The notes under the pieces: generated by a model
Told to the model about the DNA's origin: nothing
Seen by the model: the letters and a program-made list of their open reading frames with translations, nothing else
Database searches by the model: none
Shown here: one piece after another, positions 1,620 through 5,357 of the stretch
Layout: every line of letters starts with the position of its first letter
How positions within the stretch are numbered: position 1 is the stretch's first letter
Assembly (NCBI GenBank): GCA_034439575.1
Contig: JAWXAQ010000012.1
Location: forward strand, 32,001 to 96,000
Reading direction: 5' to 3'
Length of the DNA: 64,000 nucleotides
From: Leptospira sp.
GTDB lineage: Bacteria > Spirochaetota > Leptospiria > Leptospirales > Leptospiraceae
Made by a program: the position numbers and the translations under genes

Positions 1620-1920
1620 AACCAACAGTATATTGAATGTATACACAAATGAAATCCCGAAGGGGATAAATATAGGCCATTTTTAACGAATTAGGCTAAA
1701 GCGAATCATCAATAGCCAAAAAAAAATATCTATGTAAAACAATTGGTCAACAAAGCGGAAATATTATAAATTTTTAATCTCGTACGGCTATTTCTTTGCA
1801 ATGGGTTCACTAATATTCTCCCCGGGATAGCGAAATTTGCTATTGTGTTATCTAATTAGTAAACAAGAAAGTTTAGGATTCATTACTTATAAACCTGAGT
1901 TTGAATTCTGACGTTGGTGG

Positions 1921-4820
1921 ATGCTGATGACAAAATTTATAAAAATACTATTCATTACTTCAATAATTGTCCTAAATAATTGTACGTATTGGCCAGTAGC
2001 AAATGGACTGATTTCTGATTTGCTAACAACTGCAGGTGGACAAAACAATTCAACATCTCTTATACTTGCTTCTCTTTTGAACCAAGGGGGTGGAGGTTCT
2101 CAACTAGATATAATTCTTTTTGATCCTGCACCAGCTAATATGATAGTAGGCGAATCTCAGACACTCAAAGTAAAAGCGCGAATAAATAATGGGGAAACCC
2201 ATGAGTAGCGAATGCAGGGGAAATACAATTTCTTTCCTCGGATTCTGCGATACTTTCTACTTCTGGAAATACTGTGACTGCTCTCTCAAATGGCAGTGCG
2301 AGTATCACGGCTAGTTATAAAGATAAACTGGTATCAGCAGGAATCACTGTCAGTGCCAATGATGGATCAACTGCTACTGCATCCACTTTACCAGCTGCAG
2401 TCCCACCTACACCAGATACCACTGCACCCACTGTCACATCTGCTTCAGCAATTTTACCAAATCGGGTGAGAGTAATCTTCTCTGAAGATGTAAATGCGAC
2501 AGGTGCAAGTCTTGTAGCAAGTTATAAAATTGTATTCCAAGCGGATGTTGCTGGTCTTTGTTCTACAAATGCTAATTTTGCTAGTACCTCTACCGTAGGC
2601 ACTTTAGGTTCTGCTTCTGCCACAGATTTGGGATTTAATATATCATCTGTAACAGCGATTGATGCAAGAACTTATGACCTAAATTTAAGCCACAATCAAT
2701 TCCCTGGCGCAAACTACACAGTGATCGTTGATAAAACTGCGATAGAAGATCTCGCGACCACACCGAATGCTCTCGGATGTTCTAATACAGGAAACTTTAC
2801 TGGCGATGAAGCAATCAAAGTTACTTCTGCGACTTGCATAGATACTACGAATTTTGTCCTTACATACTCCAAGCAGGTATTAGGCGGAGTCGGCACTACT
2901 GGATCTGGCGAATGTGATACGACTTCCACACCTTCATGTGCTGATCTTTATAAAATCCCAGCAGGCCTTGGTGCTGTGCAATCGGTGAGAAGATTAAATG
3001 GAACTGCTTGTGGCGGTTTAGCCGCAGACAATACAAAAGTCTGTATCAATCACAGTCTACCTCAATCAGGTTCTTCGTATACGGTGATGGTGGCTGATGC
3101 TACAAATGGCGATACATTTGATAATGGAACCATTAAGATTAACAGTAATTCCACTCCATCGACATCCATTATCCCCGCGAGTGATTCGGCAACATTCACA
3201 GGATGTGGCACAACGCCTGTAAATTTATCCGATGGAGCTCTCTTAGAAGATCCGTTTGGTGATGGATCTGATTATGGTGATCTTACAGCTTATCAATCAA
3301 ATATACTCATTGGACCAAATCGAAATGGAAACCGAGCTGCAAGATTTGCCATTGATGGGACTTCACTCACAAGTTTAACTTTCGCTCTTCAGAAAGATAC
3401 AAACTCAGGAAGTGGCTCTCGGTCACCCCAAAATACAATAAGTAGCTCACTAGCAGTCGGTGATCCATATACTTATTCATCTATTGGTGGTCCATTGTGC
3501 GTAAGCTCCCACACAGCTACCTGCGGACCAAACAACCAGGATGGAAGAGGGGTCTTTTATTCTGGAATGATCGGAGGCTTTGAAACCTTAATATTAACTG
3601 GCTCAAAATCATCAGATGGTACAGGATACCCGAAAAACGATTATATCTATTGGACAAGAGATACAGATACTCAGCTGGATTTTCAATACATCGATACAGG
3701 TGCTGTACTAAATTCACCGGCAGTGAATGGCTCTTCTGTTGGAGGGGCAACCGTTGCTATCGAGCACAATACAGGAAGTGAATCGGTGGCGTTTCATAAT
3801 GATCACCTGTATTTGTCTTACCCAACGACTGACCCAAAACGACCAACAATCCTTCGATTGCAAGATGTTACAGTACCTGAACCCCTACCATCTGCGATTA
3901 ACAGAGATTTGTCTCTCTTCTCTATGATAAACATTGGAATGATTGCTGACAATTCTTTCAGCAATATGAATCTGTATCAAATATTAGGTGGAACGGTGTA
4001 TTCCTTTAATAATCGGGTTTATGTTGCAAATACAGGAAAGATTCGTTACAATGCTGCATCTTGCAGCCTTGGGAATAGCTCAACTTATTCGGGAGGGACT
4101 TGTGAGCAAAGAGGGGGAGTTATACGTTCTACGGTAGTTAATCCGGCACCTTGCTCAGGATTCGGAGCATGTGCCGATTGGGTTAATATTTCTCCTTCAG
4201 CAACCCAATACGCTCGAAACTTTTCCAATCCTCTAACAAGAGTTTTAAATTTAAAGGCTGGTGATAGACCCATTCCAAGCTTTGAAACATACAATAGTAA
4301 ACTTTATATGCTCAGAAATGCATGTCGTACTGTGCCAATGGTCGGTGAATACTGGTGGGCACCTGCGACCTTTAACGAAGGTACTTGCCCAATTGGCAAT
4401 GAAAGACCTCAGTTATGGAAATGTAGCCCTGGTGGGGACTTAGAATGTGATGCGGCTGATTGGACTTTGGTGGCAGAAGATGGAGTTACTACAGGCGCAA
4501 CTAACTTTGGAGATACGAATAACCGAAGGATCACACTCTTAAAGACAAATGGTAGCCGCTTATATATTGGATTCGACAATCCAAATGGAATCCAAGTGTT
4601 TAGAACAAGGTCAGGAATTACAGATCCTGCAAGTGCCGCTGACTTTGAAGCCGTACCAGGCCCGACAGGGGCTGCAAGTTTCAATTCCCGATTTGTGCAA
4701 GAGATCTATTCCGCTGCGTCAAGGTTAGATGGAACGATTTACAATCTTTACATTTCTGTCGGTGGGAGAAATGGCGGAACTCCAGTTCCTGTAAAGGTTT
4801 ACAGACAAATCAATAACTAG
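1921..4820 (+). pseudogene. lig: LigB/LigC-like immunoglobulin-like lipoprotein with a single Big_2 repeat, interrupted by a 1-nt frameshift at about 2202-2208
   Basis: Lipobox IVLNN-C-TYWP. Big_2 motif spans the frame junction (VGESQTLKVKARINNGETH|VANAGEIQFLSSDSAILSTSGNTVTALSNGSASITASY). Long C-terminal region carries Lig non-repeat motifs DPFGDGSDYG, IGPNRNGN, CGPNNQDGRGVF, RPQLWKC, TNFGD, LYIGFDNPNGIQ and terminal PVKVYRQINN. Adding 1 nt gives a 966-aa ORF. Confidence 0.8.
2274..4820 (+). CDS. C-terminal fragment of the Lig-like protein (frame open from 2205)
   Basis: 848-aa ORF with the Lig C-terminal domain and no signal peptide of its own; it is the downstream half of the frameshifted gene. 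Confidence 0.6.
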   Translation: MTALSNGSASITASYKDKLVSAGITVSANDGSTATASTLPAAVPPTPDTTAPTVTSASAILPNRVRVIFSEDVNATGASLVASYKIVFQADVAGLCSTNANFASTSTVGTLGSASATDLGFNISSVTAIDARTYDLNLSHNQFPGANYTVIVDKTAIEDLATTPNALGCSNTGNFTGDEAIKVTSATCIDTTNFVLTYSKQVLGGVGTTGSGECDTTSTPSCADLYKIPAGLGAVQSVRRLNGTACGGLAADNTKVCINHSLPQSGSSYTVMVADATNGDTFDNGTIKINSNSTPSTSIIPASDSATFTGCGTTPVNLSDGALLEDPFGDGSDYGDLTAYQSNILIGPNRNGNRAARFAIDGTSLTSLTFALQKDTNSGSGSRSPQNTISSSLAVGDPYTYSSIGGPLCVSSHTATCGPNNQDGRGVFYSGMIGGFETLILTGSKSSDGTGYPKNDYIYWTRDTDTQLDFQYIDTGAVLNSPAVNGSSVGGATVAIEHNTGSESVAFHNDHLYLSYPTTDPKRPTILRLQDVTVPEPLPSAINRDLSLFSMINIGMIADNSFSNMNLYQILGGTVYSFNNRVYVANTGKIRYNAASCSLGNSSTYSGGTCEQRGGVIRSTVVNPAPCSGFGACADWVNISPSATQYARNFSNPLTRVLNLKAGDRPIPSFETYNSKLYMLRNACRTVPMVGEYWWAPATFNEGTCPIGNERPQLWKCSPGGDLECDAADWTLVAEDGVTTGATNFGDTNNRRITLLKTNGSRLYIGFDNPNGIQVFRTRSGITDPASAADFEAVPGPTGAASFNSRFVQEIYSAASRLDGTIYNLYISVGGRNGGTPVPVKVYRQINN

Positions 4821-4842
4821 TATATAGAACTCCTGGATTTTC

Positions 4843-4882
4843 TACCTTATGATTCTTAAAAAAATCATAAGGTATTTTTTTT
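4843..4882 (+). terminator. intrinsic (rho-independent) terminator after the lig-like gene
   Basis: TACCTTATGATT (4843-4854) / AATCATAAGGTA (4863-4874) 12-bp stem followed by T8. Confidence 0.8.
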
Positions 4883-4991
4883 ATTTCATACGGTCAAAAA
4901 AAACCGTTCAGAACTTAGTTTGTTCCGCTTGGGCTTGCGCAATTTTTCATTTTTTGATTAAATTAAATAATGTTCCGCTAGGGATAGTAAA

Positions 4992-5357
4992 ATGAACAAT
5001 CAGACACTTTCGTTATTTATAATTTTGTTATTGGTTTCCTGCCAACATGCCCGTGTGCGTTTGGAGATGAAACCACCTAATGAATGTATAAGCAATGAAT
5101 TTTCTGAATCTGATTGTATGTTTGCCAAGGCAAATCTTCTGAACAAAGTCAGAGAAGGTGGGACTCTCTCTCATAAATTTAAACAAGATTATTATTTTTG
5201 GGGTTTTTATCCAAGAAATATGGAACTAGATCTTTCTGAAGTTTGTCCAGCTGGCATTTACGAACTGCATAGATTTGCAACATTTAGTGATACTCTATTT
5301 GAACAATTAACAATTGGAATTTATTCTCCAAGGACTATTAAATTATTATGTTATTAA
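4992..5357 (+). CDS. Bor/Iss-like small lipoprotein
   Basis: Lipobox LLLVS-C; Bor-like YYFWGF...EVCPAG...TFSD...LTIGIYSPRTIKLLC. Confidence 0.8.
   Translation: MNNQTLSLFIILLLVSCQHARVRLEMKPPNECISNEFSESDCMFAKANLLNKVREGGTLSHKFKQDYYFWGFYPRNMELDLSEVCPAGIYELHRFATFSDTLFEQLTIGIYSPRTIKLLCY

Follow-up and report, generated by a model that had tools for sequence, protein, structure and literature searches.

A Lig-like gene with one Ig-like domain and a complete LigB/LigC-type C-terminal extension in an environmental Leptospira

The lig genes are stated to be absent from saprophytic Leptospira in section 6 of PMC7821625, in passages of PMC4758666 and in the discussion of PMC13081718. The first of these sources takes this absence to mean that an ancestral lig gene was acquired only once the P and S clades had separated. 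LigB and LigC end in a 772-aa extension, to which section 4 of PMC7821625 assigns no known structure or function. The literature that we searched yielded neither a Lig-type protein in saprophytes nor a structure of this extension; the small Big-domain proteins of table S10B in PMC4758666 may bear on the novelty of the one described here. We report a gene annotated publicly as a hypothetical protein only, at positions 1921-4820 (plus strand) of a 64,000-nucleotide stretch of Leptospira DNA, hereafter the window. Its product combines a LigB-like leader, a single Ig-like domain and a C-terminal extension (CTE) of the LigB/LigC type; we call it the one-Ig protein. It is likely a minimal-stalk member of the Lig superfamily, a lipoprotein with about 945 residues in its mature form and a predicted place on the outer surface, standing on a side branch and encoded by an accessory gene of an S1 saprophyte.

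Gene structure and the frame break

The coordinates given to this gene by a first-pass annotation of the window are correct, and within them the product of 964 or 966 aa is spread over two open frames, 1921-2208 (95 aa) and 2205-4820 (871 aa, stop to stop), with a one-base shift between them. The features of the locus are as follows.

1921..2208, plus strand: first open frame, 95 aa, matching residues 1-93 of the recorded protein P0001 and the separately recorded 93-aa product P0054
1921 and 1927, plus strand: start codons of the 966-aa and 964-aa forms, opening the frame for the signal peptide with its lipobox Cys, for the '0' segment and for the leading half of the Ig-like domain
1981..1995, plus strand: Cys-Thr-Tyr-Trp-Pro, the lipobox Cys and the x-x-W-P signature common to LigB, read from the sequence
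2104..2360, plus strand: lone Ig-like domain of Big_2 type, at about residues 60-145 of P0001, a beta-sandwich in the model (pLDDT about 63-85) that spans the frame break
2205..2208, plus strand: frame break, where the upstream frame ends and the downstream frame opens, shifted by one base
2206-2208, plus strand: stop codon of the upstream frame, present in the window
2361..2417, plus strand: Pro/Thr/Ala-rich linker, residues about 146-164, read from the sequence, with pLDDT below 50 at 148-162
2418..3185, plus strand: first part of the CTE, two beta-sandwich domains, residues about 165-420, aligning with LigB 1119-1370; all-beta in the model, pLDDT 80-95
3216..4817, plus strand: predicted seven-bladed beta-propeller with long Cys-containing insertions, residues 431-964 (VIA-align, AlphaFold2 model)
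3216..4817, plus strand: propeller motifs DPFGDGS, CGPNNQDGRG, RPQLWKC, LYIGFDN and PVKVYRQ
4818..4820, plus strand: stop codon of the gene, from the open-frame reading
4843..4884, plus strand: hairpin of 12 pairs that resembles a terminator, with a T run behind it, a pattern match only (6 sites versus 2.6 expected in shuffles)

Joined together, the two frames match P0001, an intact 964-aa protein on record, with 100% identity over the 871-aa part. A second intact record, P0166, has 966 aa, and the intact P0001 form is recorded by NCBI, JGI and Logan, on 3 contigs. An extra base at the break, which yields a single frame, was present in the contigs of all four metagenome runs compared, three of them from microbial mats (which may be the source of the window DNA) and one from groundwater sampled in another study. 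The break might nevertheless be genuine and the gene decaying in its host, as it is carried by both the window and the source genome, and the assembly from which the window was taken (a 207,814-base contig) is publicly annotated with two products of 93 and 848 aa. Against such a pseudogene stand the single-frame base in every run, including the one from a different study, the intact form recorded by three sources and the lack of any other stop or shift across 2.9 kb, so that we regard decay as very improbable. Given the extra base in all four runs and the recorded 964-aa protein without a break, the break probably stems from an assembly error or marks a rare variant, and natural copies of the gene are intact. 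A frameshifted subpopulation may still be real, because Logan contigs lose rare variants and three of the four runs possibly stem from the source DNA itself. The hairpin at 4843..4884 suggests that the gene ends its own transcript, and a promoter scan was uninformative (14 sites versus 11.4 expected).

Host genome and distribution of the gene

The source genome (G000) is a 4.1-Mb metagenome-assembled genome with a contamination figure of 0.93%. It belongs to the same genus, in which 41 species were searched, as genome G022, where an open reading frame contains the related protein P0005 letter for letter. At NCBI, P0005 is entered as a plasmid-encoded protein from Leptospira sp. WS60.C2, a strain that PMC11706286 assigns to L. 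milleri in subclade S1. Neither G000 nor G022 yielded LipL32 (PF12103), while it was recovered from 3 of 3 positive-control genomes, taken from the two genera that hold the 1,900-aa Lig proteins. A search of the source genome with LigB returned the one-Ig locus and no other Lig. The gene was also seen in contigs of runs from microbial mats and from groundwater. Through the genus that it has in common with G022, we place the host among the environmental saprophytes of subclade S1, which bears out the earlier suspicion of a non-pathogenic lineage.

Within this genus, the one-Ig type occurs in 2 of 41 genomes (species). Synteny was found with the 113,167-base contig of G022 only, over 0.5-21 kb of the window, and the G022 ortholog lies on this 113-kb plasmid. 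The one-Ig gene is a rare accessory gene, the block of which recurs on a 113-kb plasmid of another S1 species. A tblastn search of P0001 against a plasmid collection that may leave out near records gave no match. Further along the contig of the one-Ig gene lie purL, mutL and nusB, and the junction between accessory block and housekeeping genes could be an assembly join, as the genome was assembled from a metagenome. The raised G+C content of the gene (42% versus 36%) was rejected as a sign of transfer, the excess being confined to codon positions 1 and 2; third-position G+C, at 0.30 versus 0.20-0.31 in the neighbours, is neighbour-like, so that composition says nothing for transfer. Proteins of this type fall into seven clusters at 90% identity (P0001-P0007) with mutual identities of 53-76%, and all seven keep the leader, one Ig domain, the linker and the CTE. 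Six of them are recorded at 954-976 aa, and the 912 aa recorded for P0005 are explained by a late annotated start.

Parts of the protein and place in the Lig superfamily

We compared the one-Ig protein part by part with P0023 of L. kirschneri (1916 aa), identified as LigB by its match to PDB chains of that name (2mqg, E 8e-47). The leader ends in ...VLNNC-TYWP (residues 15-23), its LigB counterpart in ...FQSC-MSWP. Of the 175 proteins collected, 29 have a C-x-x-WP signature among their first 60 residues, LigB P0023 included, and this leader is also carried by many CTE proteins of 876-2487 aa. A Gly/Ala/Leu-rich '0' segment follows it, and residues 5-143 of P0001 align with LigB 1-134 (E 1e-5). 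The first-pass annotation had read here a signal peptide with C-x-x-WP, a Pro/Thr linker and one Big_2 repeat. The first two are seen in the sequence, the linker reading LPAAVPPTPDTTAPT in P0001. As to the repeat, Pfam Big_2 (PF02368; gathering cut-off 22.8 bits) has no match at E <= 1 in the two pieces or in intact P0001, which gives a count of 0 Big_2 stretches versus 10 in LigB. When a profile of residues 56-146 of the one-Ig family was run against the 175 collected proteins, it recovered each of the 12 Ig positions in LigB; five matches had i-E < 0.01, and the best was to domain 1 (61-134, i-E 7e-9). One repeat thus holds as a lone Ig domain recovered by family profile and structure model, to which the Pfam family is blind; judged by sequence, this domain resembles Lig domain 1 most.

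The CTE, of about 800 aa, makes up more than 80% of the one-Ig protein. Over their full length, the CTEs of P0001 (residues 164-963) and LigB (1119-1915) align with 33% identity and an E of 4e-126, a similarity well beyond chance, and all the motifs of the LigB/LigC non-repeat region listed by the first-pass annotation are present (DPFGDGSD, GPNRNGN, CGPNNQDGRGVF, RPQLWKC, LYIGFDNPNGIQ and PVKVYRQ), which confirms its reading of this part. No Pfam or NCBIfam family matched the two pieces or the unbroken protein at E <= 1, and a sequence search of the PDB with the 871-aa part returned none at E <= 1. For LigB, section 4 of PMC7821625 describes the first CTE domains as putative Big_5; in the Pfam copy used, Big_5 (PF13205) has no match in P0001 at E <= 1 and none in LigB P0023 at E <= 0.01. 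Big_5 is also annotated on Protein Atlas neighbours, which we note as a lead only.

An AlphaFold2 model of the whole protein (pLDDT 79.7, pTM 0.71) consists of the Ig domain, two beta-sandwiches and a seven-bladed beta-propeller; modelled alone, the propeller reached a pLDDT of 83 and a pTM of 0.89. VIA-align superposed it on 2z2n, 3vgz and 3bws with Z scores of 22.9, 21.4 and 20.8, at rmsd 2.9-3.2 over 288-300 of its 534 residues. Residues 431-964 are accordingly modelled as a seven-bladed beta-propeller. Foldseek matches were generic only (query TM 0.46 or less), and fold searches for a specific relative found generic propellers only, at 5-12% identity, with no function named. In a six-protein alignment with LigB, 15 cysteines are invariant, and the invariant CTE residues as a whole are mostly Gly, Cys, Trp, Tyr and Pro, which is scaffold-like.

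The CTE reaches well beyond the Lig proteins, with matches to 364 cluster representatives and in 59 of 114 Leptospiraceae genomes. The 60 named CTE loci, obtained with a six-row alignment as query, include metagenome-assembled genomes of Myxococcota, 'Deltaproteobacteria', Phycisphaerae and Ignavibacteriaceae; a contig search with a single protein as query gave 18 pattern matches and 0 relatives. The CTE was found behind Big_2 arrays, Calx-beta arrays and small unrelated N-terminal domains. It is a module of long standing, present in free-living Leptospirales and in some other phyla and joined to varied stalks. The suggestion that it predates repeat expansion is upheld, the CTE being older and wider than the Lig repeat array. 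On the CTE trees, which were computed by FastTree (71 rows) and by IQ-TREE under LG+C20 (39 rows) and agree on placement, the one-Ig family (support 100) lies within a clade of environmental Leptospirales (support 100) distinct from that of the Lig proteins (support 97); the root was assumed, on Myxococcota and 'Deltaproteobacteria' rows, and several rows have a deviant amino-acid composition. Forcing the family together with the Lig clade cost 84 log-likelihood units, with p-AU 0.027 in a test that used a simpler model (LG+G4) on 24 rows and a group named after the tree had been seen. By these sequence trees, the one-Ig family is placed as a side branch of the Lig superfamily and not as its ancestor, LigB/LigC being another branch.

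This placement bears on two other ways of relating the one-Ig protein to LigB. The first-pass annotation had proposed an ancestral Lig, in which the one-Ig layout came first and LigB/LigC arose by expansion of Ig domains. The leader, Ig domain 1 and CTE are indeed all common to LigB, the host lineage is non-pathogenic and short layouts recur among environmental Leptospirales. However, the family does not sit at the base of the Lig clade; it lies within the environmental clade, where its nearest neighbours are mostly long-stalked, and its union with the Lig clade is disfavoured by the AU test. The gene is moreover rare and plasmid-linked in its S1 genus, other members of which have a different protein of 1325 aa with five Big_2 stretches and a CTE. 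We therefore consider an ancestral position very unlikely. That the gene is a ligB or ligC of a pathogen that lost its repeats recently, or that DNA of a pathogenic Leptospira contaminates the bin, is almost certainly wrong. The layout does equal LigB minus domains 2-12, but a simple deletion is excluded by the identity of only 33% to LigB and by the seven clusters, all one-Ig, that keep the same layout at 53-76% identity. Contamination is contradicted by the low figure for the genome, by the housekeeping genes on the same contig and by the neighbour-like third-position G+C.

Proposed function and comparison with known systems

By analogy, we regard the one-Ig protein as a putative short-stalk surface binding protein; its lipidation, surface exposure and binding are predicted by likeness to LigA and LigB only, and the kind of ligand is likewise conjectural. 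An N-terminal lipid would hold it on the outer membrane, the three beta-sandwiches would form a short stalk, and the disulfide-rich propeller would be the head that binds a ligand from the environment, for example the matrix of a mat or biofilm, a polysaccharide or the surface of another cell. The 12-domain stalks of LigB and LigC would carry this same head and would themselves have acquired the binding of host proteins. LigA has no CTE and is yet surface-exposed (PMC7821625, section 4), so that the CTE is not needed for export.

The propeller could instead be an enzyme that is anchored to the surface and attacks mat polymers, as a polysaccharide lyase, a hydrolase or a lactonase. Its best Foldseek matches include PL24/PL25 ulvan lyases (6byx, 7drq, 6jq9) and GH43 enzymes, the top VIA match is virginiamycin B lyase, and a neighbouring Protein Atlas cluster is named 'Lactonase, 7-bladed beta-propeller' (score 0.79), a lead only. 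These enzyme matches are, however, of low query TM and 7-12% identity, and WD40, Kelch and lectin propellers score equally; the invariant residues are of types typical of scaffolds, and binding activities are reported for CTE fragments of LigB in PMC7821625. An enzymatic role thus appears unlikely, and we keep to the binding head.

The confinement to P1/P2 that the literature states for Lig fails here, as the genus of the one-Ig host holds an S1 species: the Lig-like family is not confined to pathogens. A few S1 genomes carry two kinds of Lig-like lipoprotein, the one-Ig form and the 1325-aa form, which, together with the wide spread of the CTE in free-living bacteria, points to an origin of the parts of the family outside pathogens. 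We tentatively envisage, as a possibility that falls short of probable, that the Lig family is an old modular surface system of free-living Leptospirales (C-x-x-WP leader, variable stalk, propeller head) and not pathogen-born, that the propeller was its original working part, for attachment in mats or biofilms, and that it is exchanged on plasmids among saprophytes. If so, LigB and LigC would retain in their extensions a role in the environment, outside the host, and the simplest safe model for CTE function would be the one-Ig protein, which occurs in a saprophyte that can be cultivated. It is a tractable object, a protein made up largely of CTE that is also present in a cultured non-pathogenic species; in practice, the rarity of the gene, a function proposed by analogy and a purely hypothetical annotation set limits to this use.

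Among known systems, the LigB and LigC proteins of the pathogens (P1/P2) share with the one-Ig protein the C-x-x-WP leader, the '0' segment, the first Ig-like domain and the complete CTE with all its signature motifs, in the same order of parts. They differ in having 12 Ig-like domains versus one, which Pfam Big_2 does not score, and in their pathogen hosts, whereas the one-Ig gene belongs to a plasmid or accessory block of an S1 saprophyte and its CTE to a separate clade. LigA resembles it in leader and type of Ig-like domain but has 13 such domains and no CTE (PMC7821625, section 4), whereas the one-Ig protein is almost only CTE.

The 1325-aa lipoproteins (P0008, P0056 type), found in the three S1 genomes G009, G019 and G022 (on the chromosome), come from the same genus and have C-x-x-WP and Big_2 domains followed by a CTE; they differ in their five Big_2 stretches, their chromosomal genes and a CTE only 27-28% identical to that of P0001, which forms a long branch of uncertain place on the CTE tree. 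P0008 carries the precomputed annotation PF26918. The nearest CTE relatives of the one-Ig family on the tree are short proteins of environmental Leptospirales, L020, L027 and L055 (931-945 aa) and L035, in which a lipobox and one small N-terminal domain precede the CTE. L035 has one Big_2-like domain but no W-P after the Cys, and its record is split into two frames; the other three differ in their leader (G-C-A-R/K-Y-G) and in an unrelated N-terminal domain. To our knowledge, invasin and intimin have no sequence relation to the one-Ig protein. They combine a beta-barrel anchor, a Big_1-type stalk and a C-type-lectin-like head, and they offer no more than a working analogy, in which an anchor in the membrane carries an Ig-like stalk with a binding head at its C-terminus.

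The gene and its frame break

The gene spans positions 1921-4820 (+ strand) of the window and is split between two overlapping open frames:

1921-2208, + strand: first open frame, 95 aa
2205-4820, + strand: second open frame, 871 aa stop to stop, shifted by one base relative to the first
4843-4874: terminator-like hairpin downstream of the gene

In order, the first frame encodes a signal peptide (ending ...IIVLNNC), the residues TYWP, a stretch rich in Gly, Ala and Leu, and the opening half of an Ig-like domain; the remainder of this domain, a Pro/Thr linker and about 800 repeat-free residues come from the second frame. The upstream neighbour, on the opposite strand, is a PilZ-domain gene. Downstream lie genes for a Bor-like lipoprotein and a SpoIIE-type phosphatase, with GGDEF/EAL, sensor-kinase and AraC-type regulator genes farther out. 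The Bor-domain protein (121 aa, window 4992-5357, + strand; phage lambda Bor lipoprotein, E 1.4e-11) is encoded directly 3' of the Lig-like gene, and the same order is kept on the contig of G022, a relative from the saprophyte subclade S1 that carries an ortholog.

A homologue search in a collection of 5.8 billion proteins showed that the 871-aa part is 100% identical to P0001, an intact 964-aa protein recorded by NCBI, JGI and Logan on three contigs (cluster look-up), the longest of 588,391 bases. A 966-aa form is also recorded (P0166), and in the window's own assembly (contig C12, 207,814 bases) the pieces are entered as 93-aa and 848-aa products. Contigs from four metagenome runs were aligned to window 1700-4900. 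One additional base was present at the break in all four runs, three of which, all microbial-mat runs, are not independent because they are a possible source of the window DNA; other differences numbered 0 or 1. In the fourth run, from groundwater and another study, the region was covered by eight short pieces at 99% or more. The extra base in four of four runs, together with the intact records, therefore indicates an uninterrupted gene in the organisms that were sampled. Most likely, the frame break was introduced by this assembly; a rare variant, conceivable because contigs drop such variants, is the less likely explanation.

Lig-type modules and predicted fold

When 1.84 billion cluster representatives were searched exhaustively with HMMER, 364 relatives of the C-terminal extension (CTE) were returned at E <= 1e-3, of which 269 reached E <= 1e-10 and 80 reached E <= 1e-30. 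The reference LigB was P0023 of L. kirschneri (1916 aa, named Ig-like domain protein by NCBI), which matches the PDB chains LigB 2mqg (E 8e-47) and LigA 8gyr (E 1e-64) and contains 10 Big_2 stretches according to Pfam. In BLASTP, residues 164-963 of P0001 aligned with LigB 1119-1915 (33% identity, E 4e-126), and residues 5-143, the leader and first Ig domain, with LigB 1-134 (E 1e-5). The coordinates, leader and motifs reported in the first-pass annotation were thus recovered, all motifs being present and aligned to LigB. Its single Big_2 repeat stands as one Ig-like domain but not as a Pfam match: the Big_2 model gave no match on P0001 at E <= 1, whereas a profile of the seven family members over residues 56-146, searched against 175 proteins, found 12 places in LigB, five with i-E < 0.01, the best being domain 1 (7e-9). 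Among these 175 proteins, 29 have C-x-x-WP in their first 60 residues, LigB and CTE proteins of 876-2487 aa included. Judged from the BLASTP alignments, the Ig profile matches and the shared C-x-x-WP, the leader, first Ig domain and CTE are all of Lig type, the only missing parts being the other 11 Ig domains.

The one-Ig family consists of seven 90%-identity clusters (P0001-P0007, 53-76% identical to P0001), all keeping leader, one Ig domain, linker and CTE. The stability of this layout across 53-76% identity argues for a working gene rather than a recent deletion product. Six clusters are recorded at 954-976 aa and P0005 at 912 aa, owing to a late start. This start sits 53 residues inside a 964-residue open frame (locus L003, contig C3 of G022), and is probably annotated too late, concealing the lipoprotein leader, since the upstream frame encodes a signal peptide and a C-T-Y-W-P lipobox. 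The 'Leu-Ile-Pro-Ala-Asp' peptide of the LigB extension, a reported fibronectin binder, aligns at P0001 ~772-785 (window ~4240-4280). The aligned block is conserved family-wide, environmental members included (consensus DL-x-PADRP-x-P-x-F; LKAGDRPIPSF in P0001), and may have a structural role instead of being a site specific to the host.

AlphaFold2 modelling of the whole protein (28-row alignment; mean pLDDT 79.7, pTM 0.71) predicted the following segments:

residues 1-58: disordered
residues 60-145: beta-sandwich
residues 148-162: disordered linker
residues ~165-420: two further beta-sandwiches
residues 431-964: all-beta domain

VIA-align against 48,161 chains placed residues 431-964 on seven-bladed propellers (Z 20-23, rmsd ~3 Å, ~290 of 534 residues), including virginiamycin B lyase 2z2n, WD40 proteins, YncE 3vgz, the leptospiral antigen Lp49 3bws and the PLL lectin 5c9o. 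Residues 418-964 folded alone (30 rows) reached pLDDT 83.1 and pTM 0.89, and Foldseek retrieved for them generic propellers only (Kelch, PL24/25 ulvan lyases, GH43 enzymes, lectins), with TM on query <=0.46 and identity of 7-12%. The 15 cysteines invariant in a six-protein alignment including LigB are as expected for an extracytoplasmic, disulfide-bonded domain. A Lig review describes the first part of the LigB extension as two putative Big_5 domains (PMC7821625); Pfam Big_5 gave no score in P0001 or P0023.

Distribution, host lineage and tree position

CTE matches (E <= 1e-10) were found in 59 of 114 Leptospiraceae genomes. By genus, they occurred in 3/40 genomes of g1 (the window's genome, G000, not counted), 19/22 of g16, 22/24 of g17, 6/8 of g18, 4/5 of g8 and in the single genome of each of g6, g10, g12 and g15; the ten genomes of g7, g9, g11, g13 and g14 gave none. 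Scanning one genome from each species with a pattern yielded 86 stretches, 61 of which encode a relative, in 60 loci. These loci occur in Leptospira species of the pathogenic clades P1 and P2, in many metagenome-assembled Leptospirales and Spirochaetota, and in records labelled Deltaproteobacteria, Myxococcota, Haliangiales, Archangium, Phycisphaerae, Ignavibacteriaceae and Roseivirgaceae. The stalks preceding the CTE include Big_2 arrays, five Calx-beta domains (P0009), small unrelated N-terminal domains with a different lipobox (L020, L027 and L055, open frames of 931-945 aa) and one Big_2-like domain (L035). In these sequences the CTE is the constant part and the stalk the variable one. The earlier suggestion that the C-terminal domain predates repeat expansion is held right, as the CTE is found in free-living Leptospirales and other phyla behind varied stalks. 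L035 (2731-5643, metagenome-assembled Leptospirales) is a further gene that joins one Ig domain to the extension but is unrelated to the subject gene; its product has a lipobox without W-P, and it is recorded as two frames of 464 and 506 aa. In genome G117 (genus g18), contig C23, positions 357000-394500, at least four adjacent huge open frames (3166-3736 aa), each ending in a Lig-type extension, look like a local expansion of the family.

The host genome, G000, comprises 4.11 Mb in 37 contigs (completeness 99.98%, contamination 0.93%, G+C 35.7%), and its DNA is present in microbial-mat and groundwater metagenome runs. Its genus counts 41 genomes in the collection, among them G022, where one ORF holds P0005 letter for letter. 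NCBI names P0005 a plasmid protein of Leptospira sp. WS60.C2, which PMC11706286 describes as L. milleri, subclade S1, with a 113,167-nt plasmid; Lig occurs zero times in the description of L. milleri. No LipL32 (PF12103) was found in G000, G022 or one g8 genome; both g16 genomes and the one g17 genome tested had it, these genera carrying the 1,900-aa Lig proteins. A LigB query matched nothing in G000 besides the subject gene. Since the host shares its genus with the S1 genome G022, and neither LipL32 nor another Lig was found in it, it is an environmental Leptospira of the saprophyte clade that has no classical Lig, as the proposal of a non-pathogenic lineage had anticipated.

For phylogeny, the CTE was cut out with an HMM made from alignment A1, and rows spanning model positions <=20 to >=755 were kept: 51 of the 62 locus ORFs, together with 20 selected proteins. 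In the 71-row FastTree, P0001-P0007 were monophyletic (support 100) inside an environmental Leptospirales/Leptospiraceae clade; a separate clade held LigB and LigC of P1 and P2 with 1300-1348-aa proteins of 'Leptospira sp.' metagenome genomes. An IQ-TREE LG+C20 quick search on 39 rows (the long-branch rows P0008 and P0049 left out, and 30 others dropped for speed), with the root assumed at three Myxococcota/'Deltaproteobacteria' rows, gave the same picture: SH-aLRT 100 for the environmental clade (21 rows), 97 and 95 for the nested sets holding the family and 97 for the Lig clade. Forcing the family with the Lig-clade rows was 84.4 log-likelihood units worse (AU p 0.0265; 24 rows, quick), for a group chosen post hoc, once the tree was known, and with LG+G4, a simpler model than LG+C20; some tree rows are of deviant composition. 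Within these limits, the family is a side branch of the Lig superfamily, neither the LigB/LigC stem nor a deletion allele of LigB/LigC, and the idea of an ancestral Lig is not supported.

The P0001 query matched 4 of the 41 genus genomes, G000 included; the one-Ig type occurs in G000 and G022 only. G009, G019 and G022 (chromosome) carry a different 1329-aa open frame, in which a C-x-x-WP leader precedes five Big_2 stretches and a CTE of divergent sequence (P0008/P0056 type). This 1325-aa lipoprotein (loci L086 on G022:C1, L087 on G009:C2, L088 on G019:C1) is ~30% identical to LigB across 1,400 residues. It represents another type of Lig-like gene, besides the one-Ig form, in a clade reported to lack them; its tree position is unsure because of a long branch. 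The precomputed Pfam column lists PF26918 on P0008, which may be a recent model covering part of the Lig extension.

When 9 kb of DNA around the gene was compared with 20 relatives, the only match beyond short pieces was the 113-kb contig C3 of G022. In tblastx, 14.6-23.0 and 34.0-45.3 kb of this contig were collinear with 32.5-41.0 and 41.7-53.1 kb of C12 (window 0.5-21 kb); C12 also carries purL, mutL, ribH and nusB. The collinear block coincides with a region of reduced G+C (0.29-0.34 in window 4-36 kb vs 0.357 for the genome). Window 4000-36000, rich in AraC-type regulators, GGDEF/EAL proteins, sensor kinases and adenylate cyclases and with one chemoreceptor, looks like an accessory block moving between plasmid and chromosome. 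The gene's own raised G+C (0.42; 0.50 at codon positions 1 and 2, 0.30 at position 3) was rejected as a sign of transfer: position 3 is neighbour-like (0.20-0.31), and the rise reflects a Gly/Ala/Thr/Ser/Pro-rich protein.

Putative role and comparison with LigA and LigB

The lig genes have been described as absent from saprophytes (PMC7821625 section 6), likewise in PMC4758666 (section 36, covering 20 genomes) and PMC13081718 (discussion). A search of full-text papers, covering few subscription journals, found none on a Lig-type extension in a saprophyte or on the structure of this extension. The one-Ig form is a new layout within a known family, occurs in a clade from which that family is said to be missing, and corrects a textbook-level statement. 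The gene is rare and its function putative, and its product offers a safe model for the unexplained 800-aa domain.

Homology, layout, predicted fold, distribution and intactness of the gene being established, a mechanism can be proposed from the fold and by analogy with LigA and LigB, two lipidated proteins exposed at the cell surface (PMC7821625 section 4). The N-terminal lipid would anchor the protein in the outer membrane, the three beta-sandwiches and flexible linker would form a short stalk, and the predicted propeller would act as the binding head; it is also possible that the modelled propeller is enzymatic instead. Genes of c-di-GMP signalling (PilZ, GGDEF/EAL) lie near the gene and also on the related plasmid. 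A role in attachment or biofilm is weakly suggested, because the mat and groundwater habitat and these neighbouring genes would fit it. LigA lacks the extension yet is found at the surface (PMC7821625 section 4), so the extension does not serve as an export device. The subject protein differs from LigA in having a CTE; compared with the 12 Ig domains of LigB it has only the first-type Ig domain, the leader and CTE being common to both.
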